Source of the DNA: an uncultured Planctomycetales bacterium
Lineage (GTDB): Bacteria; 4484-113
Length of the DNA stretch: 64,000 nucleotides
Direction: 5' to 3'
NCBI GenBank assembly: GCA_964554185.1
Contig: CAZKNJ010000003.1
Location: 2,968 to 66,967 of the forward strand
Shown here: one piece after another, positions 3,841 to 61,343 of the stretch
How the letters are laid out: each line of letters opens with the position of its first letter
How positions within the stretch are numbered: the stretch's first letter is position 1
Notes under the pieces: model-generated
Databases searched by the model: none
Told to the model about the DNA's origin: nothing
Seen by the model: the letters and a program-made list of their open reading frames with translations, nothing else
Made by a program: the position numbers and the translations under genes

Positions 3841-4821
3841 ATGCCCACCTGTCTCATAATCGGCAAGGACGAACTGCTCATACGCGAGGAGGTGCGCAAG
3901 CTCGCGCGCAAGGTTGAGGTGGATGTTTTCCACACGGACGACGTCAAGCTGGACGCCTTCACGCAGCACGCAACCACTTCCGACCTCTTTTCCAGCGAGC
4001 GCGTGCTCTGGCTGAAGGACGTGGCGTCGCTGCCCCGCTCCAAGAAGACCGCCGATGCGCTCATTGCGCTCTGCGGGCGGGTGCCGGCGCATACGACGGT
4101 GGTGTTCTCGCAGAACATTGACTTTGGCGATGACTACCGCAAGGCGTCGGCCTTCCGCAGCAGCGCGGTGACCAAAGCGCTGGAGAAATCGGTTGACCGG
4201 ACGATTGAGCCCAAGCTCGTGGGGCGGCAGTTTCGGCGCTGGGTGCTGGCGCACGCGGAGAAAGCCTACGGCCTGCGGCTGGAGGAGCGGCAGGCCGAAG
4301 AACTGGCGCAGCTCGCGGACGAGCGTCCCGCTCTGGTGGATATGGAGCTGCGCAAGCTCTCGCTGCTGAAGAAGCCGGACGCCACCGCCAATGTGCGCGA
4401 GCCGGTTTTTCGTGCCGTAGTCTCGCGCGCCATCGGTGGCCGCATGCGCCAGCTGGTGGATGCGGCGCTGGAACGCGACAATCAGGCGTTCAACCTGGCA
4501 ATGGACGCCTCGCGCACCGAATCGCTGGGGCACGACTTCTACCGCGACTTCTACCGCGGGCTGCAACGCTTGCTGGCTATCCGCACCGATCCGCAGTTCC
4601 GCTCCCGGCCTGAGTTCAAGTCCTTGCCGCAGTTTCTAGTGGAGAAACTGCGGGCCGCCGCCCCGAAGTGGTCCACTCAGTCGCTGCTGGAAGCGCTGGC
4701 GCTGGTTACCCGCGCGGAGTTCCGGATGCGCACCGGCCGGGTGGCGGGCAAGAGCCCCCAGGCAGCGGAGTTGAATCTGCTGTTGCTGCTGTTGAAGCAA
4801 GTGTTTGCGAGTCCGTCTTAA
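3841..4821 (+). CDS. holA: DNA polymerase III delta subunit-like protein
   Basis: 326 aa, the right size for HolA. Its N-terminus (LIIGKDELLIREEV...LFSSERVLWLKD) and C-terminal helical region resemble HolA. Assigned by recall only. Confidence 0.5.
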   Translation: MPTCLIIGKDELLIREEVRKLARKVEVDVFHTDDVKLDAFTQHATTSDLFSSERVLWLKDVASLPRSKKTADALIALCGRVPAHTTVVFSQNIDFGDDYRKASAFRSSAVTKALEKSVDRTIEPKLVGRQFRRWVLAHAEKAYGLRLEERQAEELAQLADERPALVDMELRKLSLLKKPDATANVREPVFRAVVSRAIGGRMRQLVDAALERDNQAFNLAMDASRTESLGHDFYRDFYRGLQRLLAIRTDPQFRSRPEFKSLPQFLVEKLRAAAPKWSTQSLLEALALVTRAEFRMRTGRVAGKSPQAAELNLLLLLLKQVFASPS

Positions 4822-7803: not shown

Positions 7804-8003
7804 AGTACCCCTCCTTACCGGTTTGGGTTTTAAGGCGATTATAGCATGTGAAAACAATCGCAAGTAGCAAGCACACAAACGCAAATGACCTTTTCCAAGC
7901 GGGTATCACATATTCGTCACGCCGCATACCAAGAATCTAAATCGGTGGTAAAATACAACATCGCAGCGGCCTCCAGGGAGAGGCCATACAGGAGGTAGAT
8001 CAC

Positions 8004-10876: not shown

Positions 10877-10885
10877 TGCTAAAAT
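10877..10885 (+). promoter_or_regulatory. extended -10 TGcTAAAAT upstream of doxX
   Basis: Lies 35 nt upstream of the ATG at 10921, which is preceded by TAGGAGGGG. Confidence 0.35.
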
Positions 10886-11457: not shown

Positions 11458-12285
11458 TTAGGGATACCGCGCCGCAATTGCCTGCACGAGCTTGGCGTTG
11501 AGCTTGTGGCCGCTCTTGACGCCGAGGATGTGGGCGTTCAGCCTGCGTCCGAGAACGTGCATATCACCCATCATATCCAGTATCTTGTGCCGGGCGAACT
11601 CGCCGGGCATTCGCAGCTCCGGTTTCGTGCCCGCCCGTACGACGAGCCCCATGCTCTCGTCAGTTGCCCCGATCAGGCCCTTCTCCTGGGCAATTCGGGC
11701 TTCCTCCTCCATAATGAATGACCTTGCCGGCAGCACGGTATCGGCCAGATTCTCCGCGTCCAGATCAACGCTTACGTACTCCACGCCGATTTCCTGATAC
11801 TGGCTGTAGTCCAACACGAATGAGAACCGCCGCTGCTCGTCCGGCAACACCACCACCACTGCGCCGTTGTCACCGTGCACTGCGAGAGGCCGGTGGAAGC
11901 GGATTTCTCTCAGGGGCGCATCCTGTTCCACCACGCCCACTGAACTCAGTTGCTCCGAGTAGACCTTTGCGCTGCCGTCAAACGCCGGAAGCTCCGGCCC
12001 GTCAAGCTCCACTTCCAGGTTCGCAATCCCGAAAGCGGAGCAGGCGGCCAGCAAGTGCTCCACCACCTCAACCGAGATATTACCTGACGTGATGCTGGAG
12101 CAGTTAGGGCGTGGTTGCTGTGTCTTGGGAGATACGGCAAGCCTTGCTCCAGACAAGTCGGTGCGGACGAGTACAATGCCCGAATCGGGCTCCGCGGGAA
12201 GCAGCCGCACGGTTGTCTGCCGGTTGTGGATGAAGCCCTTCCCCTGCAGCTCAACGGGCTTCTTGATTGTTTTCTGAAGGGCCAT
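11458..12285 (-). CDS. lpxC: UDP-3-O-acyl-N-acetylglucosamine deacetylase
   Basis: 275 aa. LpxC N-terminus MALQKTIKKPVELQGKGFIHNRQTTVRL...EHLLAAC and C-terminus HKLNAKLVQAI. Confidence 0.9.
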   Translation of the reverse strand: MALQKTIKKPVELQGKGFIHNRQTTVRLLPAEPDSGIVLVRTDLSGARLAVSPKTQQPRPNCSSITSGNISVEVVEHLLAACSAFGIANLEVELDGPELPAFDGSAKVYSEQLSSVGVVEQDAPLREIRFHRPLAVHGDNGAVVVVLPDEQRRFSFVLDYSQYQEIGVEYVSVDLDAENLADTVLPARSFIMEEEARIAQEKGLIGATDESMGLVVRAGTKPELRMPGEFARHKILDMMGDMHVLGRRLNAHILGVKSGHKLNAKLVQAIAARYP

Positions 12286-12357
12286 CGGCCAGCGGTAACT
12301 TTAGCACATCGCCGTCGCTGGCGGCCGCCTCAATGTGGGCGCAGGTCGCGAACATCA

Positions 12358-12428: not shown

Positions 12429-12974
12429 ATGCAAGTGACGATAAAGGGGAAGAACTTTGACGTATCCGACCGCCTCAAGGAGTACGCTGACCGCAAGGTG
12501 GGCAAGCTGAGCAAGTACTTCAACCACATCCTCTCAGCCACCATCGAGTTCGCCGACGAAGCCGGCGGCAAGAAGCAGAACGCCCGTAAGGCCGAGATAA
12601 CGCTCAATGCGGCCGGGCAAATTCTGCGGGCTGAGGTGGTTGGAAGCTCGTTTTACACGAGCCTTGACTCAGCTGCCGACAAGCTCGAGCGGCAACTGCG
12701 CAAGTTCAAGACCCGCCTGATTGACAGCCGCCGGGGCAACGGCGAGGATGAGCTTGAAGCTGCCGCTGCGGCGGCCGGTCGACCGGATCCGGAGGATGAG
12801 CTGGTGCGAATCAAGCGGTTCAGCCTGAAACCGATGACGCCGGAAGAGGCGGTGCTCCAGATGGAACTCTCAAACCACGACTTCTACCTGTTCCGCGTGC
12901 CGGATTCCAATCAAGTAGCGGCCGTGTACCGCCGCAAGTCCGGCGGTTTCGGCATGCTGGTTCCTGACGAGTAA
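12429..12974 (+). CDS. hpf: ribosome hibernation promoting factor (long form)
   Basis: 181 aa. MQVTIKGKNFDVSDRLKEYADRKVGKLSKYF, and a C-terminal dimerisation domain RIKRFSLKPMTPEEAVLQMELSNHDFYLF. Confidence 0.9.
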   Translation: MQVTIKGKNFDVSDRLKEYADRKVGKLSKYFNHILSATIEFADEAGGKKQNARKAEITLNAAGQILRAEVVGSSFYTSLDSAADKLERQLRKFKTRLIDSRRGNGEDELEAAAAAAGRPDPEDELVRIKRFSLKPMTPEEAVLQMELSNHDFYLFRVPDSNQVAAVYRRKSGGFGMLVPDE

Positions 12975-12978
12975 CCCG

Positions 12979-14109
12979 TCACGGGCAACTGGTGAAGGTG
13001 AAAGCGAAGCCCTCCAGCCCGGGGGTGAGCCATACCAGCTCAAGCTGGTGGCGCCCAACGCCCTGATTGCGCGCCAGGTTGTACATTCTGGGCGTGTCCA
13101 CTATCACGATGCTGCGCCCGTCCTTATAACTCACTTGCTCGCCCGCCACGGCCTTATCCAGCGATGCACCGTCCTGCGCGATGATGAGTTTGCCGGGACC
13201 GTCCGCTGGCGGATGCAGCACCAGGTTCAGCTCCATCCCCTCGTAGTCCAGCAGCAGCCGCCCGGGTTTGGCCTCGTCACCCGTGAACTTGACGCTCCAG
13301 GAGGTGGCTTCAAACGGGCCCTCCAAATAGACTGTGTGGGGTTCTAACTTCTCTGGCAAAACGTAATCGGCGCTCGCGTTATGGATATGCCCGCCACGGT
13401 TGCCCAGGCGCCCCCGGGCGTACCCGAGATACAGCTCCGGGGTCACGGGCAGCGCGCAGAACTCTCCCTCGCTTCCGGTTGGCGTGCGCGGCACCTCCGG
13501 CAGCTGCACGTCCGGGTCAATCTCTCGCAGCAGCGCCTGAATGCCGCGCTCGCTTTCCTCATATCCGCCCTCGCCGAAGTGCCAGCTTCGCAGCCGCAGG
13601 TTGCGGTCAAAGAAGTACTTGGCCGGCCAGTAGCTGTTGCCCAGGCTCTGCCAGATGGCGAAGTCGTTATCCAGCACTATCGGGTATTCCAGCCCGAATG
13701 CTTCCACTGCCCGCCGCACGTTCGCCACCTCGGTGGCAAAGGGAAACTCCGGCGCGTGCACGCCGATGATTACCAGCCCCTTGTCCTTGTAGCGTTCGTG
13801 CCACTGCTTGATGTAGGGTAGGGTGCGGATGCAATTCACGCATGTGTAGTCCCAGATGTCCAGCAGCACTGCCTTTCCCTCAAGATCCTCCGCTTTCAGA
13901 GGCTTGGAGTTCAGCCAGGCCGCGCCCTTCAGTTCGGGTAACCGCATTCCGATTCTCCTGTCAGTTTCGCTTGAGGCCGCTCGCTTTTGGAAAGCCGCCA
14001 ACTCGCTCCCGCCGACTGCGGTGCTCTCCTGAGCTGATTCTGGTTTCACGCAGGCGGTGCCGGCGGCCAGCAGCAGCAGCGCAATCACAAGTGTAAGTTG
14101 TCTTACCAT
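12979..14109 (-). CDS. secreted thioredoxin-fold (TlpA/redoxin-like, CVNC active site) protein with ~170-aa C-terminal extension
   Basis: Signal peptide. Redoxin core LLDIWDYTCVNCIRTLPYI...GVHAPEF...YPIVLDND. The C-terminal domain is unassigned. Confidence 0.65.
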   Translation of the reverse strand: MVRQLTLVIALLLLAAGTACVKPESAQESTAVGGSELAAFQKRAASSETDRRIGMRLPELKGAAWLNSKPLKAEDLEGKAVLLDIWDYTCVNCIRTLPYIKQWHERYKDKGLVIIGVHAPEFPFATEVANVRRAVEAFGLEYPIVLDNDFAIWQSLGNSYWPAKYFFDRNLRLRSWHFGEGGYEESERGIQALLREIDPDVQLPEVPRTPTGSEGEFCALPVTPELYLGYARGRLGNRGGHIHNASADYVLPEKLEPHTVYLEGPFEATSWSVKFTGDEAKPGRLLLDYEGMELNLVLHPPADGPGKLIIAQDGASLDKAVAGEQVSYKDGRSIVIVDTPRMYNLARNQGVGRHQLELVWLTPGLEGFAFTFTSCP

Positions 14110-14195
14110 TGGCTAGTCTAGTACCTGATTAACCGCGTATGTATTGTGCTCCAGTGCATCCCGGCTGGGGTGCGGCATCGGTAATCGCCCCTTGG

Positions 14196-14204
14196 TGGTA
14201 TAAT
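14196..14204 (+). promoter_or_regulatory. extended -10 TGgTATAAT only 9 nt upstream of the clpX ATG (near-leaderless)
   Basis: cttgGTGgTATAATtgtctatct then ATG at 14214. No SD sequence between them. Confidence 0.45.
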
Positions 14205-14213
14205 TGTCTATCT

Positions 14214-15605
14214 ATGAGCGGTCGCGGTGACGACAGCGGAACCTACGCCGGCAACCCGCGCTGCAGCTTCTGCGGCGAAGAGCAGGCCTCACGTAACGTG
14301 CGGATGATCAAGGGGCCCGGCATTTACATCTGCGAGGAATGCGTCAACATCTGCAAGGAGCTGCTGGACGGCCCCAAGTTCCAGGCCACGCCCAAGGTCG
14401 CGCTGGGGGAGATTCCCACCCCCCAGGAAGTAGTACGCTACCTTGACGAGTACGTTATCCGCCAGGGCCACGCCAAGAAGGTCATCGCCGTAGCGGTCTA
14501 CAACCACTACAAGCGCATCAACGCGCTCACCAGCCCCAACATCGAGTTGCAGAAGAGCAATATCCTGCTCATCGGCCCCACGGGCGTGGGCAAGACGCTG
14601 CTGGCGCAGAAGATAGCCAACATCCTTGATGTCCCCTTCGCCATCGCCGACGCGACCACGCTCACCGAGGCCGGCTACGTCGGCGAAGACGTGGAGAACA
14701 TCCTCCTGCGCCTGTACCAGGTCGCCCAGGCCCAGTCGCCCAACGCCAACGCCGCCGAGGTCCTGGCCCGCACCGAGCGCGGCATCATCTACATTGACGA
14801 GCTTGACAAGATCGCCCGCAAGAGCGAGAACCCGTCCATCACCCGTGATGTCTCCGGCGAGGGCGTGCAGCAGGCGCTGCTGAAGATACTCGAGGGCACG
14901 GTGGCGAATGTCCCACCCCACGGCGGCCGCAAGCATCCGCAGGACGAGTTCCTGCAGGTCTGCACCAACAACATCCTGTTCATCTGCGGCGGCACCTTTG
15001 ACGGCCTGGAGAAGATAGTGGAGCGGCGGCTGGGGCAGCGCACCATCGGCTTCCGTTCCCAGGAGAGCGCTGCCAAGGGCGCTGATAAGAGCCGCTACGA
15101 CATCCTCCAGCATGTGGAGCCGGACGACTTCATGAAGTACGGCCTGATACCCGAGCTGGTGGGCCGCCTGCCAGTCGCCGCCGCGCTGGAGGACCTGGAC
15201 GTGGACGCGCTGGTGGAGATCCTCTACAAGCCCGCCAACGCGCTGGTGAAGCAGTACCAGTACATCTTCCGCGAAGACGGGGTGGAGCTGCGCTTCACCC
15301 GCGGGGCGCTGCGGCGCATCGCGCGGCTGGCCAAGAAGCTGGGAACCGGCGCGCGCGGGCTGCGAAGCATCACCGAGAAGCTGCTGCTGGACTTCATGTA
15401 CGACCTGCCGAACCGCAAGCAGGAAGGCACGCTCACGATAGACGCCAAGGACGTGAACAAAGTGTTCGCCGGCAGTATTGTCCCGTTTGAAACATCTGAC
15501 GAGGAAGACGAGTCTGATGAAGCGGTGGCCGCGCCGGCGCCGCGCCCGAGGCGGAAGGAAGGCCAGTTGCAGTTGCCCCCGGCCGAACCCGAAGTTGCGG
15601 GCTAG
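14214..15605 (+). CDS. clpX: ATP-dependent Clp protease ATP-binding subunit ClpX
   Basis: Zinc-binding CSFCGEEQ...ICEECV. Walker [12 protein letters not shown]-like loop. A C-terminal acidic Pro-rich tail is extra. The start at MSGRGDD matches the ClpX N-terminus; the track ORF begins at 14139. Confidence 0.95.
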
Positions 15606-15637: not shown

Positions 15638-16702
15638 ATGCGTACTTCACGCATTCTGCTGACCATCACCAGCGCATTGACAGTGCTGCTGTATACCCAG
15701 TCGATCTTGGCCGATCTTGAACCTGGAACCGAAATACCACCAGTTGACTGGGCGGAGGTTGCGACCGAAGTGCAGGACTGCCGCTTGGGCGCGGACGAGC
15801 TTGGCGGTTACGTTGCGCTGGAAGAGCTGCAATTCAGCAAGGGGCTGTACTGGTTTGCCTCGCCCGAGGAATGCCGCCTCAAGCTGCTTCCGTTCTACTT
15901 AGATGACCGCTTCGCCGGGGAGCTTCCGCTGGACCTGGTTTATGATGTAATCCAGCGTGGGGACATCCCGCTGACCAGAGAGCTGGCTCAACTAATTGGC
16001 GTCAAGCGCAACGCCCTGCCGGACTGGAAGGAACTCACGCGCACCGAGCGCTTGCAGCTTTTCGCCTCCTTCCCCGCACCGGAGCGCAACATGCCGCTGC
16101 CGATGGCGCACCCGCCCTTCGCGCTGACGCTGCCGGGCGCGATGGCAGCGCAAGAGCTTGGCGCCGTTGACGGGCTGGGCGGCTTCTTGGCTGTGGCCTT
16201 CGCCGACCCGGAAAGCACCGTCAGGTTCGATGCCGACCACCGCATGTATTCGGGCGGACGCTGGCTGCCTCGATTCACGAAGCGCTACCTGCGCCTCATT
16301 GCTAACCAGCAGACCGGCGGCTTTTTTGAGCCGTGGCACGAGAACTTCTCGCCGGGGAACGGCTACTTCATCAGGATTGACCGACCGGAAGCGATTGATG
16401 CACTGGTGGACTACTGCGCGGTTGCCGACCGCGACCTGCTGCTGCGCCGGATAGCCGTCCATCCGCCCTCGAGGGCCATAAAGGAGCCCATGGGCGGTAC
16501 TGCCGGAACCATGCTGTGGCTGCGTTCGGTGGACCCGGTCAAGGTAGTCCGCGACGCCCTTGAGACGGGTCAACTTCAGGAGTATGTCTCGTTCTACTAC
16601 TTCCGGATGTACGGCAGCGAGCGGGTGATCGCCGAGGGCATTGTCCTCGCGCCGACCGAGCAGGCGCTGACCACCGCCGCCGAGAGCAGCGTTCGCGGCT
16701 GA
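15638..16702 (+). CDS. secreted protein, EPWH-GNGY module family, paralog A
   Basis: Signal peptide MRTSRILLTITSALTVLLYTQSILA. GGAGG RBS. Contains LTRTERLQLF, then FFEPWHENFSPGNGYFIRI, then FYYFRMYGSERVIAEGIV. Confidence 0.65.
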   Translation: MRTSRILLTITSALTVLLYTQSILADLEPGTEIPPVDWAEVATEVQDCRLGADELGGYVALEELQFSKGLYWFASPEECRLKLLPFYLDDRFAGELPLDLVYDVIQRGDIPLTRELAQLIGVKRNALPDWKELTRTERLQLFASFPAPERNMPLPMAHPPFALTLPGAMAAQELGAVDGLGGFLAVAFADPESTVRFDADHRMYSGGRWLPRFTKRYLRLIANQQTGGFFEPWHENFSPGNGYFIRIDRPEAIDALVDYCAVADRDLLLRRIAVHPPSRAIKEPMGGTAGTMLWLRSVDPVKVVRDALETGQLQEYVSFYYFRMYGSERVIAEGIVLAPTEQALTTAAESSVRG

Positions 16703-16766
16703 ACAGTGCACACGCTTGGTGCGTCATACCTGCATCCAGTAACAAACACTTCCGAGGAGGGGGACG

Positions 16767-17609
16767 ATGAAACGCATACTACTTGTAGCCGTGCTGGTCC
16801 TGCTGGCCACCGCTTTCTCCGGCTACGCGCGCGCCGAGGATAAGACGGTGGTGAAAAGCATGGCTTTCACTATCAAGCTTGCCGGAGATGAAGCCGCGGC
16901 GAGCGATATGGCTAACGCCATGCTCTTCATCCACGCGCTCAAAGCGGTGGGCGGCGAGATCCACTTTGAAGGCGACAACGTGGTCATCAAGCTCGACCTT
17001 ACGCCGGAGAAGGTGGAGGCTCTGCGCCTGGCGCTGGAGCAGGGCGGCTTGCCCGTGGGGCTGATGCCCGGAGTGGTCCTGAAGAAGGGGGACATGCCCG
17101 AAGGTATGGAAGACTTCATCTGTCCTCCTCGCAAGTCTGGCAGCCACGAGCGTTTCCTGCTGGGTAATAAAGACGAAAAGGGTAAAGGCTACTCCGAAAG
17201 CTACACCTCACGCGGGCTACCCGAGATGCCCGAGATCAAGTGCCCCCATTGCGGCAAGACCTTCCGCCCGGACATGCCGAAGATGATGATGCCGCATCCG
17301 CCGATGCCCCCGATGCCGCCGTCTGGCGGCGAGTTCAAACCGGAGATGCCCCACGGGCCGATGCCTTACGGCGGAATGATACCCGGCATGGGCCCGATGC
17401 ACGAGGATGCAATGAAGCAGCTTCAAAGTCTGCGCGAGCAAATGGAGCAGATGCGCGCGGAGCAGGGCGAGCTCTGGCGGGCGCTGGAGGAGTTGCATAT
17501 GCAACTGGGCCAGGTGCACAAGATGGACCGCGCGAAGTGCGAGGACCTGGACGCCCTCTGGCGCGCCCTAGATAAGCTCTATGCCGAGCTGGACGAGGAG
17601 GACGACTAG
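16767..17609 (+). CDS. secreted Met/Pro-rich protein with CxxC and C-terminal coiled coil (possible Cu/metal-binding periplasmic protein)
   Basis: Signal peptide. KCPHCGK. A Met-rich tract MPKMMMPHPPMPPMPP...MPHGPMPYGGMIPGMGPM. An acidic coiled-coil tail. GAGGAGGGG RBS. Confidence 0.6.
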   Translation: MKRILLVAVLVLLATAFSGYARAEDKTVVKSMAFTIKLAGDEAAASDMANAMLFIHALKAVGGEIHFEGDNVVIKLDLTPEKVEALRLALEQGGLPVGLMPGVVLKKGDMPEGMEDFICPPRKSGSHERFLLGNKDEKGKGYSESYTSRGLPEMPEIKCPHCGKTFRPDMPKMMMPHPPMPPMPPSGGEFKPEMPHGPMPYGGMIPGMGPMHEDAMKQLQSLREQMEQMRAEQGELWRALEELHMQLGQVHKMDRAKCEDLDALWRALDKLYAELDEEDD

Positions 17610-17660
17610 CCCGCTGCGGTAGAATAGTAAGGAGAAGTCTCTCAGGACAGGAGGCGCCAT

Positions 17661-19367
17661 GTGAAAACCGGGTGGCTGATGGTGGTGCTGGTGGCGCTTG
17701 TGTGCGCTGCCGGAGGGTGTGTCAACGCCAAGGCCCAGAACGATCAGGCTGAAGCGGATATGGATCGTGAGCAGCTACTGGACGAGTACACCCAGTTCCT
17801 GAAGGAAGTGAAGTGGGACACCCCGATTGACTTCACTCAGGACTTCTTCCGGCCCGACGAAGGCTTTCGCCCTCCAGATGTGCCTCAGGGGCTGGGAGAC
17901 TATCGGACACTGCCTCTGCTGCTGGACCTATTCGGCATCAATGAGCTGCCCATACCGAGCGGCGCGACCTTCGCTGGGATCAAGTTGACCGGCGAAGTGG
18001 AGCCACTGGACGAACTATCGCTGGCGGAGCAGAACACGCTGATGCTTCGCTTCCGCACGTCGGGTAACCTGGGGAACATCTATAACGCCATGACGCAGCT
18101 GCGTCTAGCTCCCATGATGGCGTTGAGCGGGCAGAGTGAGCTGAGCTCCATCCGGGATATTGTGGAGTGCGAGCGGGGCAAGCAGCCGCTAGTAACGGTA
18201 ACTGATTACGTCGGTTGGGTCCGGTCGCAGCGGAGGCAGCTCCCCACCAGCGATTACCAGGAATGGTTCCGCCAGAACGTGCTCCCCTACTATGCGAACT
18301 GGGTGACGGGCGGCCTGTTTGAGCCCTGGCATGAGGAATTCTCGCCGGGTAACGGCATCATCCGCGAAATAACCGATGAAGCCGATCGGGCTCAGCTCCA
18401 CGAGCTGGCGGTGAAGCAGGCAAGTGAAAAGGGCGACGAATACGATACGGGCTTTCTAGAAGAGAACCCGGATGACGTAGCGTATTTCGTCTATCGCCTG
18501 TACGGGGAAGATAAGGTCATCAAAGAGTGTGTAGCGTGGTGCTTGCGGAGCCGCGCTTCGTGGGGCGAACCTCTTCGCCGGGAGCACGATGAAGTGATAG
18601 CTATTCTGGCGCGGAGACTCGAGGAGAATGTCCTCACAGACGAAGGTCTTGAGCAATATGCAAAGATCACAGACAGATGGGAGTGGGCTAAACACAATCC
18701 TTATGCTGAATGGTGCGAGAACTGCGCTGAAGGGATTGACGAGCGTTATGAAGAGATGATGGACGAGCTGCAAGTGGCTCAACACGGCGAGTTTCCCGAG
18801 ATAGGGGAAGACTGGAGTCTCTCAGACTTACCGCTCAATGATAGCCTGGTCTACTGGGAGAACCTGACTGACGGAGAAGAGCGGACGCTGGCCTTTCGTG
18901 AGAACATCAGTTCGTCGTTCACTGATTACTTGCAGGACCTGGCTGGTTCCGACTATGAGGCAGTTACTTCATGGGAGCAACTTGCCGAGGTCGTACTGCA
19001 AGATCTGATCAGATTCCGTGACGAAACCTGGATTCAGACGGTTTCCTCAAAACGCAGTCAACGGAGTATTGACTGCTGGCTCAGCCCCATCACCCGCCGC
19101 ACCTTCGAACCCTGGCACCGGGAATGGAGCCGAGGAAATGGATACATTATCCAGATAGCCGAGGAGGATATGCTGGCCCGGCTCATTAAGCTATACGAAA
19201 AGGCGATTGAGGAAGAAGTCGTTCCTACAAGGCTTCACCCCTTTTATTACGAGCGCTACCCACATCGTCTGCGCTTCTATTACGTGCGCCTCTATGGTGA
19301 GGAGGAAGGTTCCATCATCTCCGAGGGCATCTGGTCGGCCTGGCCGCTGAATCCCATGCTGGACTAG
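17661..19367 (+). CDS. secreted protein, EPWH-GNGY module family, paralog B (two tandem modules)
   Basis: GTG start at 17661, 6 nt after AGGAGG. Signal peptide MKTGWLMVVLVALVCAAGGCVNA. Module 1 is LFEPWHEEFSPGNGIIREI...YFVYRLYGEDKVIKE. Module 2 is FEPWHREWSRGNGYIIQI...RFYYVRLYGEEEGSIISEGI. The 3' half has lower GC. Confidence 0.6.
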   Translation: MKTGWLMVVLVALVCAAGGCVNAKAQNDQAEADMDREQLLDEYTQFLKEVKWDTPIDFTQDFFRPDEGFRPPDVPQGLGDYRTLPLLLDLFGINELPIPSGATFAGIKLTGEVEPLDELSLAEQNTLMLRFRTSGNLGNIYNAMTQLRLAPMMALSGQSELSSIRDIVECERGKQPLVTVTDYVGWVRSQRRQLPTSDYQEWFRQNVLPYYANWVTGGLFEPWHEEFSPGNGIIREITDEADRAQLHELAVKQASEKGDEYDTGFLEENPDDVAYFVYRLYGEDKVIKECVAWCLRSRASWGEPLRREHDEVIAILARRLEENVLTDEGLEQYAKITDRWEWAKHNPYAEWCENCAEGIDERYEEMMDELQVAQHGEFPEIGEDWSLSDLPLNDSLVYWENLTDGEERTLAFRENISSSFTDYLQDLAGSDYEAVTSWEQLAEVVLQDLIRFRDETWIQTVSSKRSQRSIDCWLSPITRRTFEPWHREWSRGNGYIIQIAEEDMLARLIKLYEKAIEEEVVPTRLHPFYYERYPHRLRFYYVRLYGEEEGSIISEGIWSAWPLNPMLD

Positions 19368-19437: not shown

Positions 19438-21321
19438 ATGGCTCCCGACACCCGATACAACGCCGGCGTTTCCCTTTCCGAGGTCTACGAGACCGTGCGG
19501 ATTCCCGCATTCGGCCATTGGTGGAAGCGGCTGCTGGCATTCATGGGCCCCGCGTACCTGGTCTCCGTCGGCTACATGGACCCGGGCAACTGGGCCACCG
19601 ACCTGGAGGGTGGGGCGCGTTTCGGCTACCAGCTCATCTGGGTCGTCCTGATGAGCAACCTCATGGCGGTGCTCCTCCAGGTGCTCTCCGCCCGGCTGGG
19701 CATCGTCCGCCGCCGCGACCTGGCGCAGGCTTGCCGTGAAGCCTACCCGCCCATCGTGTCCTACCCCCTATGGATACTCTGCGAGCTTGCCATCGCCGCC
19801 ACCGACCTGGCGGAAGTGCTGGGAACGGCCATCGGCCTGAACCTCCTGTTCCATATCCCGCTGCTCATCGGCGTGATTATCACCGCGTTTGACACCGTCC
19901 TGGTGCTTTACCTCCAACGCCTGGGGATGCGGCGGCTGGAGGCTTTCATCGTGAGCCTGGTAGCCATCGTGGGCGGCTGCTTCCTGGTGGAGATCTTCCT
20001 CGCCAAGCCCGACTTCGGGCAGGTCGCCGGCGGCTTCATCCCGAAGATAAACGCCAGCAGCCTCTACATCGCCCTGGGCATAATCGGCGCCACGGTTATG
20101 CCGCACAACCTGTATCTCCATTCCGCGCTGGTGCAGAGCCGGGCGGTTGACCGCAGCGAGCAGGGCGTGCGCACGGCCAACCGGTTTAACCTGATTGACA
20201 CTGTTATCGCCCTCCAGTTCGCCTTCCTGATTAACGCCGCCATCCTGGTGCTGGCCGCAGCGGTGTTCTTTCAGAAGGGAATAGTGGTTACCGAGATACA
20301 GCAGGCGCACGAACTGCTGGCGCCGCTGCTGGGCACCGGTCTGGCGTCCATAGCATTCGCCGTGGCCCTGCTGGCGGCGGGTCAGTCCTCCACGCTGACA
20401 GGCACCCTCGCCGGGCAGATAGTGATGGAGGGCTTCATCCGGGTGAAGATGCAGCCTTGGGCGCGTCGGCTCATCTCGCGGCTGCTCGCGGTTATCCCGG
20501 CGGTAATCGTGGTCGCTCATGCCGGCAGCGAAGGGACTTACAAGCTGCTAATCCTCAGCCAGGTGATTCTGTCGCTGCAACTGCCGTTCGCCATCGTTCC
20601 GCTCATCAACTTCACCAACGACCGCGAGCGCATGGGCAAGTTCGCCAATCCAGTCTGGGTGCGCCTGCTGGCGTGGCTAACCGCCATCGTGGTCATCGGC
20701 CTGAACGCCTGGCTGGCGGGTCAGATGTTCCAGGAGTGGCGCCAGGCTTCCGTGTGGGCGGACATTATCGGGATTCCGTTGGGGATAGCGCTGGTGCTAC
20801 TATTAGCCTACATGGTATTCCGCCCCTGGCTCAAGCACCTGTTCACGGCCAAGCCGCACAAGCCGGTCGCGCCCGCGCTGCCCGAGTTCCCCACCGGGCA
20901 CCTGTATCACAAGGTCGGCGTGGCGCTGGAGGTCAAGGACACCGATGTGAAGATCCTTAAGCACGCGCTGCCCTACGCCGAGCAGTGCGACGCGAAAATG
21001 GTGCTGATTCATATCGTGGAAAGCGCCACCGCGCAGGTCTATCCCGGAACCGCAGAGGACCAGGAGCGGATTGAGGATGAGGAGTACCTGAACGGGCTGG
21101 CGGCAAAGCTGCGCGAGCGCGGTGTCACCGCTTCGGTGCGTATGGGCTACGGCAACGCCGCTAAAGGCGTAGTGCGGATAGCGCGCGAAGAGAAGCTGGA
21201 CCTGCTCGTCCTCGGCAGCCACGGCCACAAGGCCATCGCCGACTGGGTGTTCGGCTCCACCGTCGCCGTGGTGCAACACGACATCGGCGACATCCCCATC
21301 CTGGTTGTCAAGGGCACCTGA
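19438..21321 (+). CDS. Nramp/MntH-family divalent metal transporter fused to a C-terminal universal stress protein (UspA) domain
   Basis: Nramp signature GPAYLVSVGYMDPGNWATDLEGGA and about 11 TM segments. C-terminal roughly 140 aa: VALEVKDTDVKILKHALPYAEQCDAKMVLIHIVES...VLGSHGH...ILVV is Usp-like. The ATG at 19438 was chosen by alignment to the MntH N-terminus. Confidence 0.75.
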   Translation: MAPDTRYNAGVSLSEVYETVRIPAFGHWWKRLLAFMGPAYLVSVGYMDPGNWATDLEGGARFGYQLIWVVLMSNLMAVLLQVLSARLGIVRRRDLAQACREAYPPIVSYPLWILCELAIAATDLAEVLGTAIGLNLLFHIPLLIGVIITAFDTVLVLYLQRLGMRRLEAFIVSLVAIVGGCFLVEIFLAKPDFGQVAGGFIPKINASSLYIALGIIGATVMPHNLYLHSALVQSRAVDRSEQGVRTANRFNLIDTVIALQFAFLINAAILVLAAAVFFQKGIVVTEIQQAHELLAPLLGTGLASIAFAVALLAAGQSSTLTGTLAGQIVMEGFIRVKMQPWARRLISRLLAVIPAVIVVAHAGSEGTYKLLILSQVILSLQLPFAIVPLINFTNDRERMGKFANPVWVRLLAWLTAIVVIGLNAWLAGQMFQEWRQASVWADIIGIPLGIALVLLLAYMVFRPWLKHLFTAKPHKPVAPALPEFPTGHLYHKVGVALEVKDTDVKILKHALPYAEQCDAKMVLIHIVESATAQVYPGTAEDQERIEDEEYLNGLAAKLRERGVTASVRMGYGNAAKGVVRIAREEKLDLLVLGSHGHKAIADWVFGSTVAVVQHDIGDIPILVVKGT

Positions 21322-21335
21322 GCCCGGGCGCGGCT

Positions 21336-24300
21336 TTACCACTCCTCCTTGGGGACGCCTGCGCCACTGCGGTCGGGATACTTCGGCTTGGGTGTATCAT
21401 GCCAGGCGTGCGTCTTCAACTCCTCCAGCACCTCCTGGATGGCGCGTTCCAGCTGTGGGTCAATCCCCTTGGCCAGCAGCGTGGGGTCGTCAATGACCTC
21501 AATGTCGGGATCCACCCCGTGCCCTTCAATCGCCCAGGTGCCGTCGAGTTCGTAGATGCCGAAGCTCGGCACCGACACATAGCCGCCGTCAATGAGGCCG
21601 GGGTTGCCGGTCAGGCCCACCAATCCGCCCCAGGTGCGGGTGCCGATGAGCTTGCCCAGCCCGGCCTTGCGGAAGTAATAGGGGAAAGCGTCGCCGCCGG
21701 AGCCGGCAGACTCGTTGATCATCATTACCTGCGGGCCCGGATGCGTGCGGTAGGGCGTGCGCCAGCTCATGCCGTCGTGTAGCGCCCAGTAGTTGAGCAC
21801 CGGCCGGTTGAGCAACTCAATGAAACGGTCGGGCAGCATCCCGCCGCCGTTCCAGCGTTCATCAATGATGAGCCCGTCCAGGTTGTGTTGCCCGAGGAAC
21901 TGCCGCTGCAGGTCGATAAGGCCGCTCCAGGACGTGTTGCGTACGTAGATGTAGCCGATGCGCCCGTCACTGCGGTCAAAGACATGCTGGCGGTTGGTTT
22001 CTATCCAGGCGCGTAGCCGCAACTCGTAGTCGCTGCCCGCCGGCTGCAACAGCACCTGCCGGGAGTCATCGTCCGCGACCGCTTTCGTGCTCACGGTCAG
22101 CTCGGTGGTTTTCTCCGCCGTCCCCGCTAGCGCGGCGTATGGCGACTTGTCCTCCGCCAGCGGTATGCCGTTCACCGCTAGCAGGAAATCGCCCTCGTGC
22201 ACGTCCACTCCCGGGTGGCACAGCGGTCCGCGCACATCCAGCTCCCAGTCCGCGCCGTCGTAGATCTTCTTGATGCGGTAGCCCCAGTTGCCGTCCGCGT
22301 CCTGTGCGCGTTCAAAGTCGCAGCCCAGCAGGCCCACAGACATGGAGCGTGTCTCTTCCGTGGGCCAGCTCCAGACGTAGGCGTGGCCCACGTTCAGTTC
22401 GCCCACCATTTCGCCCAGCACGTAGGACACGTCGTCCCGGTTGGCGGCGTGCTTCACCAGCTCCAGCGCCTGGTCGCGCGCGGCTCCCCAATCCACGCCG
22501 TGCATATTGGGGTCGTAGAAGAAGTCGCGGTAGAGGCGCCAGGTCTCGTAGATGATCTGCCGCCACTCTTTGCGCGGATCAATCCGCATCGTGAGCCCGT
22601 CGGTGTTCACCTGCTTGTCCAGCGAAGCCCCGGGGCCGGCCTGGGTAATGAAGTAGCCGCCGCGGGCCGAGACCAGCATCTTCTTGGCGTCCGGTGTCAG
22701 CGCGAAGCCGGAGGCGCCCAATATCAACGTTTGCTCTTTCTGATCCGCCAGGTCATACATGGAAAGGCCGCCTTCGCCACCGCCGCGGCGGCGGCCATAT
22801 CCGCTCAGGTAGAACACGCGCTTTTCGCCCGCCTGCAGGCCGTAGTAGGAACCGGCGGAAACCGGCAGCAGTTCCGCCCGCTCTTCCAAGCCCTCCAGGT
22901 CTATCTTCAACGGCTCCACCTCTTTATCCTTGCCATCGCCCTTCTTAGCAGTCTCGGCACCTTCATCCTCGGCTGCCTTCTCGGCGTTTTCGCCGGAATC
23001 GTCCGCGTCCACGGCCGCTTCCTCCGGCTCCGCCTTAGTATCTTCCTCCTCCTTGATTTCCTCCTCATCGTTCTTCGGAGCGAAGGGAGAGGCGATGTCG
23101 TTACGCAGCGGCACCACCGCCAGTTGCGTCGCGTCGGTGAAGACGAAGGTGCCCTGGTCAAAGCTGCTGAAGGTTGGGCTGAAGCTCCGGTCGGTGGCGA
23201 AGTACAGGTACTCGCCGCTCAAGTCAAACGCCGGGTCGCGGCTGGAGAACATGTCCGAGGTCACTTGGTGGGAGCGGCGGTTGGCCAGGTCGTAGAGCTT
23301 GATGACGCTGTTGCTGTTGCGTTCGCTGGCGACGGTGTAAGCCAGCCAGTTGCTGTCCTGCGCCCAGGCGGCGGTGAGCCCCTGGCCGTCCCACGGGTCG
23401 CGGTCAATGAAGATGGTTTCGCCGCCATCAATATCGTGAACGTAGTACGCGCCGGTCTTATCGGAGAAGGCGATCTTCTTGGAATCGGGCGACCACACCG
23501 GGTAGTAGCGGAAGGCGTTCCCGTTGCGGGTCAGCTGTTCTTCCGCGCCGCTGCCGTCTGATTTCTGACGGCAAAGCTCGTATTCGCCGGTCTTGTCGCT
23601 GAAGTAGGCGATCCACTGGCCGTCGGGCGACCACGCCGGATAGCGCTCGGCTATGCCGTCGGTGCGGTTCAGGTCGCGCGGGAAGCCGTTCTCCGCCGGC
23701 AGCGTCCAGATGTCGCAATGTGCGTTTGCCACCAGACGCTTGGCCTGTGGCGAGATACCCACCTGGGACACGCTGCCGGACACGTCCACCGTCTGCAGAC
23801 GCACGTGCGGATGGTCGCCGGGCACGTTCACCTGCACCTGCTCGGTTTTATGGTCGGACAGGTGCAGCAGCAGCAGCCGGTCGCCGTACTGAAACACGAG
23901 GTCGTCAGGCCCGATGGACGGCCACTTCACGTCGTAGCGGGTGAACCTGGTCACTTGCTCGCGCTGGGCGCTCTTGGTGTCGTAGACCCAGATGTTGAGG
24001 CGGTGTTCGGGGCCGGCGTCGGACAGGAAATAGATCTTGTCGCCGTGGAACATCGGCAGGTCGTCGGTGCCGGGGAACAGGGTGATGCGGTGCGACTCGT
24101 AGGTCTTGAGGTTGAACAGCCAGAGGTCGGTCGCCCGCCCGCCCTGGTAGCGCTTCCAGGTGCGGAACTCGCGGGTCCACGGCGTGTAGGCCAGCCAGAC
24201 GCCGTCGTCGCTGATGGACGCATTGGCGCCGTAGGCCACCGGCAGCGCTTCCGGCAGCGCGCCCGTGGGCGAGGCGAAGTACAGCCGCAATCCCGCGGGG

Positions 24301-24707
24301 CAGGTCGGCTCCCGCGCGGAGCTGAAGATGACGCGCCCGTCGGGGCTGTAATCCACCACCAGGTCGGTGGCAGGATGGTAGGTCAGGCGCTGCGGAATGC
24401 CGCCCGCCACCGGCATGGTGTAGACGTCCTCGTTGCCGTCGTAGTTGGCGGTGAAAGCGATGGCCTTGCCGTCGGGGCTGAACTTGGGCAGCATCTCCTG
24501 CCCCGGGGGCGAACTCAGGGGGACGGCGGTGCCGCCCGCCTTGGGCACTATCCACACGTCGTTGTCGTAGACGAAGACGACTTTGTCGGCGCTGACGTCG
24601 GGATAGCGCAGCATTACCGCGCTGACCTCCTCCGCGGCGCGCGCGCTGAAGTAAAAGGTGGCAACGGCAAGAATGAGTACGAGCAAAGCGAGAATCAATC
24701 TCCGCAT
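21336..24707 (-). CDS. secreted tricorn protease homologue (beta-propellers, PDZ and S41 peptidase)
   Basis: 1123 aa. Signal peptide. TolB-like WD repeats (SPDGKAIAF, SPDGRVIF, SPDGQWIAY). Acidic insert. C-terminal S41 tail-specific-protease-like region. GGAGG RBS. Confidence 0.75.
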   Translation of the reverse strand: MRRLILALLVLILAVATFYFSARAAEEVSAVMLRYPDVSADKVVFVYDNDVWIVPKAGGTAVPLSSPPGQEMLPKFSPDGKAIAFTANYDGNEDVYTMPVAGGIPQRLTYHPATDLVVDYSPDGRVIFSSAREPTCPAGLRLYFASPTGALPEALPVAYGANASISDDGVWLAYTPWTREFRTWKRYQGGRATDLWLFNLKTYESHRITLFPGTDDLPMFHGDKIYFLSDAGPEHRLNIWVYDTKSAQREQVTRFTRYDVKWPSIGPDDLVFQYGDRLLLLHLSDHKTEQVQVNVPGDHPHVRLQTVDVSGSVSQVGISPQAKRLVANAHCDIWTLPAENGFPRDLNRTDGIAERYPAWSPDGQWIAYFSDKTGEYELCRQKSDGSGAEEQLTRNGNAFRYYPVWSPDSKKIAFSDKTGAYYVHDIDGGETIFIDRDPWDGQGLTAAWAQDSNWLAYTVASERNSNSVIKLYDLANRRSHQVTSDMFSSRDPAFDLSGEYLYFATDRSFSPTFSSFDQGTFVFTDATQLAVVPLRNDIASPFAPKNDEEEIKEEEDTKAEPEEAAVDADDSGENAEKAAEDEGAETAKKGDGKDKEVEPLKIDLEGLEERAELLPVSAGSYYGLQAGEKRVFYLSGYGRRRGGGEGGLSMYDLADQKEQTLILGASGFALTPDAKKMLVSARGGYFITQAGPGASLDKQVNTDGLTMRIDPRKEWRQIIYETWRLYRDFFYDPNMHGVDWGAARDQALELVKHAANRDDVSYVLGEMVGELNVGHAYVWSWPTEETRSMSVGLLGCDFERAQDADGNWGYRIKKIYDGADWELDVRGPLCHPGVDVHEGDFLLAVNGIPLAEDKSPYAALAGTAEKTTELTVSTKAVADDDSRQVLLQPAGSDYELRLRAWIETNRQHVFDRSDGRIGYIYVRNTSWSGLIDLQRQFLGQHNLDGLIIDERWNGGGMLPDRFIELLNRPVLNYWALHDGMSWRTPYRTHPGPQVMMINESAGSGGDAFPYYFRKAGLGKLIGTRTWGGLVGLTGNPGLIDGGYVSVPSFGIYELDGTWAIEGHGVDPDIEVIDDPTLLAKGIDPQLERAIQEVLEELKTHAWHDTPKPKYPDRSGAGVPKEEW

Positions 24708-24847
24708 GAGTGGTTCCTCCTGGTTGGAAGATGCCGGGGCGGCTCTGAACTCACCGATTTTACCATGCGGCGAAGATGCGGGGATTGAAACCTCAGCCCG
24801 CCCGTGTAACCTCTCCGGCGCCCCGCGTGTCTTATTATTGGTAATAC

Positions 24848-25393
24848 ATGGCCCGCAGAACCGACGAATGGCCCCCGGAACTGGAAGCGCTGCTCCGCGA
24901 GCACTTCACCGCCGCCGCCGGCTTCTGCCGCTTTCTCGCCGGCAGCGAAGAAGCGGCGAAGGAGTTGCTGGCGGAGGCCGTGGCGTTGGCAGCTATGCGC
25001 TTCCGCCAGTTGCGCGACCGCGGCAAGTTCCGCCCCTGGCTCTACGCCATCATCCGCAACCGCTGGCGCAACACCTACAAGCGCAGGCGACGGGATGCCG
25101 TGATGGCGGAGCTGGAGCGCCTGTCCGCCTCGGCGAACCCGTCCAGGGAAGACTACGACCACAGGCTGGTGGATTACGCCCTGGCGCGGCTGCGTCCGGC
25201 GGAGCGCGAAGCCTTCGTGCTCTTCCACCTGGAAGACCTCTCGCTGAAGGAGGCTGGGGCAGTGCTGGGCGTCCGGCCCGGTGCCGTGAAGGTGCGCCTC
25301 CACCGCGCGCGCAGGCGGCTGGCGGCAGCGCTGGAAGGCGCCTTAGGGTACGCTGAAGAGAAGCTCGGGCCAAAGGAGAAAGAAGATGAGTGA
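24848..25393 (+). CDS. ECF-subfamily RNA polymerase sigma-70 factor
   Basis: 181 aa. Region 2 FRPWLYAIIRNRWRN and region 4 LSLKEAGAVLGVRPGAVKVRLHRARRRL. Confidence 0.85.
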   Translation: MARRTDEWPPELEALLREHFTAAAGFCRFLAGSEEAAKELLAEAVALAAMRFRQLRDRGKFRPWLYAIIRNRWRNTYKRRRRDAVMAELERLSASANPSREDYDHRLVDYALARLRPAEREAFVLFHLEDLSLKEAGAVLGVRPGAVKVRLHRARRRLAAALEGALGYAEEKLGPKEKEDE

Positions 25394-27311: not shown

Positions 27312-27320
27312 TGGTAGAAT
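27312..27320 (+). promoter_or_regulatory. extended -10 TGgTAGAAT 12 nt upstream of the phoH-like TTG start (near-leaderless)
   Basis: cTGgTAGAATcatagttcacgc then TTG at 27333. No SD. Confidence 0.4.
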
Positions 27321-27332
27321 CATAGTTCACGC

Positions 27333-30397: not shown

Positions 30398-30469
30398 CGG
30401 CTCGCGCGGAATGGTTTTCCGGTTTATTGGAACTTACGCCGCATCCCGAAGTCTGTATTAACACCTGAA

Positions 30470-35200: not shown

Positions 35201-35209
35201 TGTTAGAAT
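35201..35209 (+). promoter_or_regulatory. extended -10 TGtTAGAAT for the DUF885-family gene
   Basis: Followed by GGGAGGGAG RBS and the ATG at 35245. Confidence 0.4.
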
Positions 35210-36885: not shown

Positions 36886-36893
36886 GCTCTCAT

Positions 36894-40165: not shown

Positions 40166-40174
40166 TGATAGAAT
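40166..40174 (+). promoter_or_regulatory. extended -10 TGaTAGAAT 8 nt upstream of the ATG at 40183 (near-leaderless)
   Basis: gaTGaTAGAATactcgcct then ATG. Confidence 0.4.
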
Positions 40175-40182
40175 ACTCGCCT

Positions 40183-41397: not shown

Positions 41398-41549
41398 AGA
41401 TTGAAGCTGATTGCCCCCGATTCGTCTCCTTATAGGGCTGGTCACGGCCCCATCCGATGCTACAATTACCGTCTCTGCAAATGCCAGGAGGTTTGGGACA
41501 AGCACGCCGCCCCCGCTTTGCGTGCGTTCCTATGAGGGTAGGGGCTTGT

Positions 41550-50243: not shown

Positions 50244-50288
50244 GACCTAGATTATAGCAGCGAGCACATATCCGTCGGCCCGAGGCTG

Positions 50289-56442: not shown

Positions 56443-56571
56443 AGGAGGACTATTGTATCAGAGGGTGAAGCTCTGAGCGGAATGATGCTTTCTGCCTTGA
56501 AGCAGAGGCCCACATAGAAAGTGTCGGTACCCGCGAGCGACAGCAGTAAATCGCAGAGCGACTGAAAGCAC

Positions 56572-58068: not shown

Positions 58069-58077
58069 TGGTAGAAT
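58069..58077 (+). promoter_or_regulatory. extended -10 TGgTAGAAT upstream of the beta-eliminating lyase gene
   Basis: About 80 nt before the ATG at 58159, which has a GGAGG RBS. Confidence 0.4.
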
Positions 58078-61334: not shown

Positions 61335-61343
61335 ATTATATCA
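61335..61343 (-). promoter_or_regulatory. extended -10 (TGaTATAAT on minus strand) for the HU gene
   Basis: Forward attatatca is the reverse complement of TGATATAAT. Lies about 30 nt upstream of the HU ATG. Confidence 0.45.

Follow-up and report, generated by a model that had tools for sequence, protein, structure and literature searches.

In E. coli and the Firmicutes, extended −10 promoters, in which TGn stands one base upstream of the −10 hexamer, do not need a −35 box. In Deinococcus-Thermus (D. deserti and D. radiodurans), a −10 element lies directly before open reading frames (ORFs) without a Shine-Dalgarno (SD) sequence in about a third of the genes, and genes led by GGAG coexist with them (PMC12340547; for the leaderless Deinococcus genes, de Groot et al. 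2014 as cited there). In mycobacteria and actinobacteria many transcription units have no 5' untranslated region (UTR) and no −35 consensus, and a 5' ATG or GTG is sufficient (PMC3898074, PMC4633059). Mycobacterial leaderless initiation requires ATG or GTG, TTG being poor (PMC4633059), and the leaderless mRNAs of Caulobacter strongly prefer AUG (PMC8459731). The TA-led genes, or group C of GeneMarkS-2, have a Pribnow box about 6–12 nucleotides (nt) from where an operon's first gene begins, in 25–50% of operons, and SD sequences elsewhere (PMC3160421, PMC6028130); group C comprises 1028 of 4769 bacteria, mostly Actinobacteria and Deinococcus-Thermus, and is rare elsewhere (PMC6028130). Here, the element TGnTAnAAT was analyzed in a 64-kb stretch of DNA (the window) from an uncultured bacterium of the phylum 4484-113, for which a literature search found no paper on translation initiation. 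Sequence and comparative evidence support the occurrence of the known leaderless-gene architecture in this undescribed lineage.

Copies of TGNTANAAT were counted on both strands of the window, and the chance level was taken from 100 dinucleotide-preserving shuffles. The motif was found 14 times, compared with an expectation of 1.66; the highest count in the shuffles was 6, and none of the 100 reached 14. All 14 copies are intergenic, lie upstream of an ORF with coding-type GC content at third codon positions (GC3) and have the same orientation as that ORF. A search for TGnTAnAAT close to start codons had been proposed in an initial annotation of this DNA; run over the window, it places seven of the 14 copies within 7–14 nt of a start. 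The motif is identical, base for base, to the sigma-70 extended −10 consensus, with the TG dinucleotide one base 5' of the −10 hexamer as in extended −10 promoters of the sigma-70 type. As far as its sequence goes, a −35 hexamer was unrecognizable: at a spacing of 15–19 bp upstream of the 14 sites, the best match was 2–4 of 6 bases, equal to that at random positions. Because no −35 is detectable, the best interpretation of TGNTANAAT is that of a −10 belonging to a class of extended −10 promoters independent of a −35, and we infer that TGnTAnAAT would be recognized by the housekeeping sigma factor without a −35. In many of the 14 sites a C-rich run (e.g. cccta, ccctc, ccccccaga) precedes the TG at positions −7 to −3, three of these columns holding C in 8 of the 14. 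A scan of 60 kb for classical pairs of −35 and −10 hexamers gave no more sites than shuffled sequence, and the number of intrinsic terminators at window positions 1–60000 was also at the chance level of the shuffles, so that neither scan can be used to delimit transcription units. With both kinds of signal at shuffle level, the organism may use other promoter and termination signals.

The distance between element and gene was defined as the number of nucleotides between the last T of the −10 and the first plausible start codon. It is bimodal, with values of 7, 8, 8, 9, 9, 12, and 14 nt for one half of the copies and 30, 34, 35, 35, 49, 49, and 81 nt for the other, and the range between is empty. 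The short-spacing copies precede clpX, phoH, moeA, ribE, a gene for an FG-GAP lipoprotein, an LptD-like gene and possibly a glutaredoxin gene, all without an SD. The long-spacing copies precede the genes for HU, a 3-hydroxyacyl-CoA dehydrogenase, DoxX, a DUF885 protein, a carboxypeptidase-regulatory-domain protein, a Tricorn-like protease and a beta-eliminating lyase, and all seven of these have a GGAGG-type site. When the looser hexamer TANNNT was scored over the 48 genes of the window, 11 (about a quarter) had it 4–15 nt before the start, nine of them together with TGn; among NTG triplets that are not starts, 4.7% have TANNNT and 0.13% have it together with TGn (binomial p = 1e-5 and 1.5e-17, respectively). 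An SD-like run was present in none of these 11 genes compared with 27 of the other 37 (Fisher p = 1.6e-5). Approximately 30 of the 48 genes head transcription units, and ~11 of these 30 units, about a third, have the short layout, while operon-internal genes in the window are without the motif. Divergent orientation relative to the upstream neighbor was found for seven of the 11 short-spacing genes; the intergenic gaps measure 104–158 nt, and a promoter must therefore lie in each of them. Nine of the 11 start with ATG, one with GTG and one (phoH) with TTG. The window thus presents the sequence features by which leaderless genes are recognized: a −10 near starts more often than by chance, no SD at these genes while others have one, AUG or GUG as start codon (phoH excepted), and a layout that is kept in relatives.

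For clpX (14196–14216, plus strand), TGGTATAAT at 14196–14204 is followed by a pyrimidine-rich spacer of 9 nt and ATG 14214, without an SD. The zinc finger CSFCG of ClpX begins at residue 17, no later in-frame start precedes it, and public gene calls use the same start. Weaker TANNNT hexamers lie further upstream in the intergenic region. The closest ClpX in a set of one GTDB genome per species was that of "Planctomycetales bacterium 4484_113" with 76% identity, and all other phyla were at 62% or below; the metagenome-assembled genome (MAG) 4484_113 gives its name to the GTDB phylum 4484-113, "Ca. Niteriota," which has 12 genomes with a GC content of 44–64% (PMC11382960). A protein search yielded a discrete ClpX clade at 62–84% identity, and ten metagenomic loci of this clade, L001 and L164–L172 (GC 43–67%), were compared. 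In all ten, an extended −10 stands directly before the clpX ATG and the SD is absent; eight of the loci carry it as TGGTATAAT, L168 as TGTTATAAT and L169 as CGGTATAAT, and TGn is kept in all relatives except L169, which has CGG. Three loci (L001, L164, and L166) have 6 nt between the element and the ATG, L169 has 8 nt, and the other six (L165, L167, L168, L170, L171, and L172) have 9 nt. The remaining DNA upstream of the gene is unalignable across the ten loci, and the neighboring genes vary (an AhpC-like gene, dnaX, a tRNA synthetase gene, and others). Among 79 ClpX loci from other phyla none had this layout; in three of them the 9-mer occurred within 140 nt, and each of these had a leader. 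Two of the deposited clpX calls run through the box and are 28 codons (L172, 256–345) and 3 codons (L165, 2867–2890) too long; the ATG after the box gives the conserved ClpX N terminus, and the upstream extensions are not conserved. Another gene of L172, coding for a phosphonate-binding lipoprotein (12590–12680), is probably called too long as well.

The loci L170 and L171 represent a syntenic sister genome, with a PhoH 89% identical to that of the window, which keeps the −10, the spacer and the start of lpxC, moeA, phoH, and the LptD-like gene on a background of diverged upstream sequence. The moeA-like gene (40166–40185, plus strand) has TGATAGAAT at 40166–40174, 8 nt before ATG 40183, has no SD and is divergent from its upstream gene; the form in L170 and L171 is TGCTAGAAT-actcgcct-ATG. 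Pfam MoeA_N positions 3–158 match residues 7–168 of the product, which has 404 amino acids in public gene calls. The lpxC gene (12283–12306, minus strand), divergent from hpf, has the weaker variant TGCTAAAGT at 12306–12298, 12 nt before ATG 12285, and positions 1–267 of the Pfam LpxC profile match residues 4–271. For ribE, which encodes riboflavin synthase (56440–56460, minus strand), TGATACAAT at 56460–56452 stands 9 nt before ATG 56442. The product matches Pfam Lum_binding, and its N terminus MFTGLV is canonical for the family. Two relatives have TGATACAAT-9-ATG (L175) and TGATATACT-9-GTG (L174). In L174 the deposited call lacks 12 codons (truncation site 3940–3980), and the GTG 9 nt past the −10 restores the sequence MFTGIIQEVGE; the recovery of an N terminus lost by the gene caller argues for the predictive power of the −10 rule. 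The starts of clpX, ribE, lpxC, and moeA are fixed by protein homology (ClpX zinc finger, RibE MFTG, LpxC, and MoeA_N), which supports the leaderless layout. A metagenome scan with RibBA for syntenic relatives of the ribE/grx/queH region returned other lineages only, at 63% identity or less.

The FG-GAP repeat lipoprotein gene (50241–50259, minus strand) has TGCTATAAT at 50259–50251, 7 nt before GTG 50243, and its product begins with a lipoprotein-like signal sequence. The product has 597 amino acids in the JGI and Logan calls and 582 amino acids, 15 codons fewer, at NCBI. The ortholog in L174 reads TGCTATAAT-ctaggca-ATG at the position of the window GTG, and an ATG at the same site confirms GTG 50243. 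For the phoH-like gene (27312–27335, plus strand), TGGTAGAAT at 27312–27320 is separated by 12 nt from TTG 27333, without an SD. The −10 contains a TAG in frame, and 60 codons pass before the next start in this frame, which falls within the conserved protein, so that TTG 27333 is the only canonical start. The box aatcTGGTA(G/A)AAT is kept in L170–L173, and aatc precedes the box in five genomes. TTG at 12 nt is kept in L170 and L171, while L172 has ATG at 14 nt and L173 has ATG at 31 nt. Given that the same promoter stands 12, 14, or 31 nt from the start in relatives, phoH is by its predicted 5' end a short-leader, SD-independent case and not a strictly leaderless one. The LptD-like outer-membrane gene (41458–41483, plus strand) has TGCTACAAT at 41458–41466, 14 nt before ATG 41481 and with no usable SD; a spacing of 14 nt would give a leader of about 4–8 nt. 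Two downstream starts, ATG 41532 and ATG 41550, the latter with an SD-like run, were ruled out, both being missing in L170. A perfect AGGAGG at 41485–41490 falls within codons 2–4 of the LptD-like ORF and is kept in L170; the triplet that follows after 1 nt, TTG in the window but ATG in L170, is nearer than a normal pair of SD and start would allow.

The remaining short-spacing candidates are weaker or ambiguous. The queH gene (61444–61465, plus strand), divergent from the HU gene, has the weaker variant TGTTAGACT at 61444–61452, 10 nt before ATG 61463. Its 197-amino acid product matches public calls; the Pfam QueH domain does not set in before residue 22, and an alternative GTG 61526 has no SD. 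We have medium confidence in queH as a short-spacing case. For the glutaredoxin gene (58004–58023, minus strand), TGCTAAAAT at 58023–58015 stands 8 nt before ATG 58006, and the start is ambiguous: the Pfam profile begins at residue 2 of the resulting 69-amino acid form, this form is absent from public calls, and the public start ATG 58024 (75 amino acids), which shares bases with the TG of the motif, is preceded by a weak GAAGGGGGG run. The AhpC/Redoxin-like gene (14107–14120, minus strand), the divergent partner of clpX, is a weak candidate with TAGACT at 14120–14115, without TGn, 5 nt before ATG 14109; the public call shares this start (376 amino acids), and the ortholog is not present in the sister loci. 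The gene for an extracytoplasmic function (ECF) sigma factor (24833–24850, plus strand) is also a weak candidate, with TATTAT at 24833–24838, without TGn, 9 nt before ATG 24848, and its homolog in L001 is leadered with an SD and gives it no support. Public calls give the same product for clpX, lpxC, the AhpC-like gene, phoH (in the sister genome), ribE, queH, and the ECF sigma factor, and in some records for moeA and the FG-GAP gene.

The initial annotation had listed five leaderless or near-leaderless genes: clpX, phoH, moeA, queH, and a gene termed paralog D. All five elements and starts are found exactly where it had placed them, and no SD-like run lies in the 3–13 nt 5' of any of these start codons. 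The list itself proved correct apart from its fifth case, and incomplete. The genes clpX, phoH, moeA and, more weakly, queH stay in it; ribE, the FG-GAP gene, the LptD-like gene, lpxC, and possibly the glutaredoxin gene had been missed, and the element of paralog D was rejected as a −10. In paralog D (30454–30472, plus strand), TGTATTAA at 30454–30461 is followed after 8 nt by ATG 30470, and the hexamer lacks its final T and is not a TANNNT. At the same place L170 has TGAATTAAC, and nothing comparable is found in L172 and L173. Paralog D belongs to a paralogous family of secreted proteins or lipoproteins without a Pfam match, encoded at 15638–19367 (next to clpX) and 30470–31519 (after an HD-domain gene); three of the four copies in the window are led by an SD. 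Its distant homologs in L001 (8102–9178) and L164 (11500–12459) are of the leaderless type, with a perfect −10 exactly 6 nt before the start.

Taken as a whole, the placement of the extended −10 at starts without an SD probably gives leaderless or near-leaderless mRNAs, which would be made alongside leadered genes with SD sequences. The mixed layout that the initial annotation had proposed is borne out as a prediction by the enrichment and gene orientation of the motif, its mutual exclusion with the SD, the validated N termini and the conservation in up to ten loci. In the proposed mechanism, TGnTAnAAT would act as the −10 of housekeeping promoters of the sigma-70 type that need no −35 box. 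For about one transcription unit in three the element lies 5–14 nt (mostly 7–9 nt) before the start codon, and RNA polymerase would start either at the first purine of this codon or a few nucleotides upstream. A −10 this near to the start leaves no room for an SD, and translation would thus take the leaderless route, with the ribosome and initiator tRNA binding a 5'-terminal or near-terminal AUG or GUG, a mode known from Deinococcus, mycobacteria, and Caulobacter (PMC12340547, PMC3898074, PMC4633059, PMC8459731). The same promoter class at 30–80 nt would give ordinary leaders with strong GGAGG sites. The binding of sigma-A, the position of the transcription start and the mode of ribosome initiation are all presumed from the arrangement of these elements.

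The spacing bears on where the transcripts would begin. In E. coli the polymerase most often starts at the seventh base after the −10 and prefers a purine preceded by a pyrimidine, and the start shifts to position 9 when the discriminator is pyrimidine-rich and non-G (PMC5730371). L001 contains 4 perfect motifs compared with 0.40 expected, and all 4 stand exactly 6 nt before an ATG or GTG (GTG in two genes). A 6-nt spacer with a start at position 7 predicts a perfect leaderless mRNA with a 0-nt UTR in the L001 clade. A histogram of spacings pooled over the window, L001, and L164–L169 has peaks at 6 and 9 nt, and the loci beyond these eight add spacings of 7, 9, 12, and 14 nt. The spacing is clade-specific, being almost always 6 nt in L001, L164, and L166 and 7–9 nt in the window group and L167–L169; the loci set against the L001 group were the window, L165, L167–L172, L174, and L175. 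The predicted UTR is 0–3 nt at spacings of 7–9 nt and about 4–8 nt at 12–14 nt (phoH, lpxC, and the LptD-like gene), a leaderless transcript being defined by a UTR of 0 nt or, operationally, of up to 5 nt. Over spacings of 8–14 nt, leaders of 1–7 nt would result unless the transcription start is shifted downstream; at 8–12 nt, the 5' end may be the A of ATG or may lie 1–6 nt upstream. None of the discriminators in the window clade is GGG; from position 7 onward 31 of 38 bases are pyrimidines compared with 56% at positions 1–6, a pyrimidine directly precedes the start codon in 12 of 16 cases (orthologous sites not being independent), and pyrimidines nearly always fill the last two to three positions of the spacer (YCT-ATG). 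This pyrimidine bias is suggestive with regard to start choice. At position 8–10, the purine that begins the start codon (A or G) would be the first favorable one, which is plausible for spacers of 7–8 nt and borderline for those of 9 nt. We tentatively consider that the spacing in the window clade has moved from the canonical 6 nt to 7–9 nt and that one of two things would then hold, a proposal that we regard as rather doubtful: either the polymerase routinely starts 9–10 nt past the −10, guided by the pyrimidine tract, and mRNAs with a true 5' AUG are still produced, or the ribosomes efficiently translate leaders of 1–7 nt without an SD, including that of phoH with its TTG. If true, either reading would relax the rules for leaderless expression that were set in E. 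coli, Caulobacter, and mycobacteria.

Several observations weigh against leaderless expression as described. The modal spacing is 8–9 nt here compared with 6–7 nt in Deinococcus and Mycobacterium, and with a start at position 7 most transcripts would carry leaders of 1–3 nt; in Caulobacter, short leaders halve leaderless translation with each added nucleotide (PMC8459731). The phoH gene starts with TTG, and its leader in L173 is about 24 nt. Unlike the leaderless mRNAs of Caulobacter, the candidate mRNAs show no reduced structure over their first 25–40 nt when compared with the starts of other ORFs (−5.4 versus −3.6 kcal/mol at 30 nt). Alternative public starts exist for the glutaredoxin gene, queH and, in some relatives, moeA. 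The relaxed pattern TGNTANNNT is not enriched in the window (49 copies versus 43.7 expected); it follows that the informative consensus is TGnTAnAAT, and that the queH variant TGTTAGACT draws its support from position, motif statistics being no help. In addition, the 5' ends are predictions from sequence, and four co-directional genes (phoH, ribE, the FG-GAP gene, and the LptD-like gene) could be read through from upstream.

These last four genes follow their neighbors at gaps of 45–129 nt, and they are the natural starting point for the view that the main promoters lie further upstream or that genes are expressed by read-through, with internal initiation independent of an SD and a box next to the start that is secondary or incidental. 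Intrinsic terminators not detectable above chance, the weaker TANNNT hexamers higher in the clpX intergenic region, and the phoH of L173, which at 31 nt from a conserved −10 without an SD indicates that leadered initiation without an SD occurs in the lineage, all fit this view. We nevertheless consider it improbable, since the clpX box stays at a fixed 6–9 nt in ten loci while the upstream sequence diverges and the neighbors change, the neighboring gene points the other way in seven of the 11 cases, and the spacing is sharply bimodal and anti-correlated with the SD; conservation would not be expected of an incidental box. The position of the box, where a ribosome-binding site usually lies, and the missing SD would also suit an A/T-rich translation enhancer or ribosome-binding motif of a non-SD kind, as in the Bacteroidetes-type group B of GeneMarkS-2, rather than a promoter. 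Group B motifs, however, precede all genes including internal ones (PMC6028130), and here the box is missing before operon-internal genes. The identical 9-mer moreover recurs at seven genes with a strong GGAGG of their own, 30–81 nt upstream, the box equals the sigma-70 extended −10 consensus, and in phoH it contains an in-frame stop, so that this function of the box appears very unlikely.

A placement of the extended −10 at true starts would fail if the start codons were mis-assigned and the real ones lay downstream with an SD, or upstream so that the box is coding. Some annotations point in this direction: the public glutaredoxin start ATG 58024 overlaps the box, in some relatives the moeA call is 6 codons longer, the NCBI call of the FG-GAP gene is 15 codons shorter, and the QueH domain begins only at residue 22. 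However, in clpX, ribE, lpxC, and moeA the conserved part of the protein sets in no more than a few residues from the proposed start, the GTG of the FG-GAP gene aligns to the ATG of L174, the extensions in L165 and L172 contain the box and are unconserved, and the phoH box holds a stop in frame. Downstream in-frame starts with an SD, which the initial annotation had named as evidence that would speak against it, were looked for in the short-spacing genes checked and none was found. Mis-assignment as a general explanation has very little probability on this evidence; the protein alignments exclude it for clpX, ribE, moeA, lpxC, and the FG-GAP gene, and it appears possible for the glutaredoxin gene and less so for queH. 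Finally, the matches could be chance A/T-rich 9-mers in a GC-rich genome, an idea to which the unenriched relaxed pattern lends itself. With 14 copies of TGNTANAAT in place of 1.66, a number reached in no shuffle, with 4 in place of 0.40 in L001, and with copies that are intergenic, co-oriented and conserved, chance is an explanation of negligible probability.

The leadered genes serve as the counterpart to the proposed leaderless ones. The 3-hydroxyacyl-CoA dehydrogenase gene has TGCTATAAT (7838–7846, minus strand) 34 nt before ATG 7803, with AAGGAGGGG, and this arrangement is conserved in L170. A leadered control on the plus strand has TGGTAAAAT (7946–7954) 49 nt before ATG 8004, with AGGAGG. 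The same distance, TGGTAAAAT and AGGAGG are found on the minus strand (24757–24765) before ATG 24707 of the Tricorn-like protease gene, which occupies window positions 21336–24707 and encodes a large homolog of Tricorn-type proteases (PD40, Tricorn C1/PDZ, and Peptidase_S41 domains). For doxX, TGCTAAAAT (10877–10885, plus strand) lies 35 nt before ATG 10921, with AGGAGGGG; for the DUF885 gene, TGTTAGAAT (35201–35209, plus strand) lies 35 nt before ATG 35245, with GGGAGGGAG. The beta-eliminating lyase gene has TGGTAGAAT (58069–58077, plus strand) 81 nt before ATG 58159, with GGAGG, and the HU gene TGATATAAT (61335–61343, minus strand) 30 nt before ATG 61304, with GAGGGGAAGG. The same −10 type with a leader and GGAGG had been noted initially for hpf, doxX, and the DUF885, HU, and lyase genes; this was correct, the last four having TGnTAnAAT at 30–81 nt and hpf having TATAAT without TG. 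The further suggestion that leaderless expression explains the non-ATG starts could not be upheld and is at odds with the experiments in mycobacteria and Caulobacter (PMC4633059, PMC8459731): the TTG of phoH is a poor leaderless codon behind a leader of variable length, and GTG and TTG are also used by genes led by an SD (17661 and 48449).

Other features of the window were recorded in passing. A gene at 19438–21321 encodes an Nramp transporter with a universal stress protein domain fused to its C terminus; TAGACT lies 26 nt upstream and an SD is absent, and the gene may have a short leader without an SD like phoH in L173. Rfam and tRNA scans of the 64 kb gave no matches, and hence no riboswitch or RNA gene stands behind the short intergenic regions. 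In particular, no flavin mononucleotide (FMN), molybdenum cofactor (Moco) or preQ1 riboswitch was found in these scans at the rib operon (ribE-ribBA..., 54579–56460), moeA (40166–41397) or queH (61444–62056), and ribE, moeA, and queH are thus present here without the riboswitch leaders that are common elsewhere. The GC content falls to 0.55–0.57 at 36000–40000, over a minus-strand gene of 1052 amino acids (36894–40052), compared with about 0.62 elsewhere, and this region may be acquired DNA.

The phenomenon as such is textbook knowledge. What is new is a lineage with extended −10 promoters lacking a −35 and with about a third of its units of the leaderless type. The −10 rule also corrects gene starts in public MAGs (clpX in L172 and L165, ribE in L174), and the spacing of 8–9 nt poses a small puzzle about start-site choice or the tolerance of very short leaders.

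In comparison with Deinococcus-Thermus, the box is kept across related species and exposes mis-annotated starts in both. The motif of Deinococcus-Thermus is TANNNT with an uninformative middle, 6–7 bp from the ORF, whereas here it is TGnTAnAAT with an informative AAT, mostly at 7–9 nt and up to 12–14 nt, in a different lineage that has lpxC and an LptD-like gene. As in mycobacteria, GTG occurs at starts of the leaderless type (the FG-GAP gene and two genes in L001). The mycobacterial transcripts have been mapped experimentally, whereas the present layout is read from DNA, has a longer spacing and includes the conserved TTG of phoH 12 nt from the −10. The diagnostic of group C is shared, with ~11 of 30 transcription units in the window, and the surveys that defined this group covered cultured phyla, phylum 4484-113 not being among them. 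The extended −10 of E. coli and the Firmicutes is a minority class, whereas here it is seemingly the main promoter type, classical pairs not exceeding chance. Distinctive for the present system is the combination of a fully informative TGnTAnAAT in a genome of 61% GC, no −35, a spacing 2–3 nt longer and an uncultured lineage.

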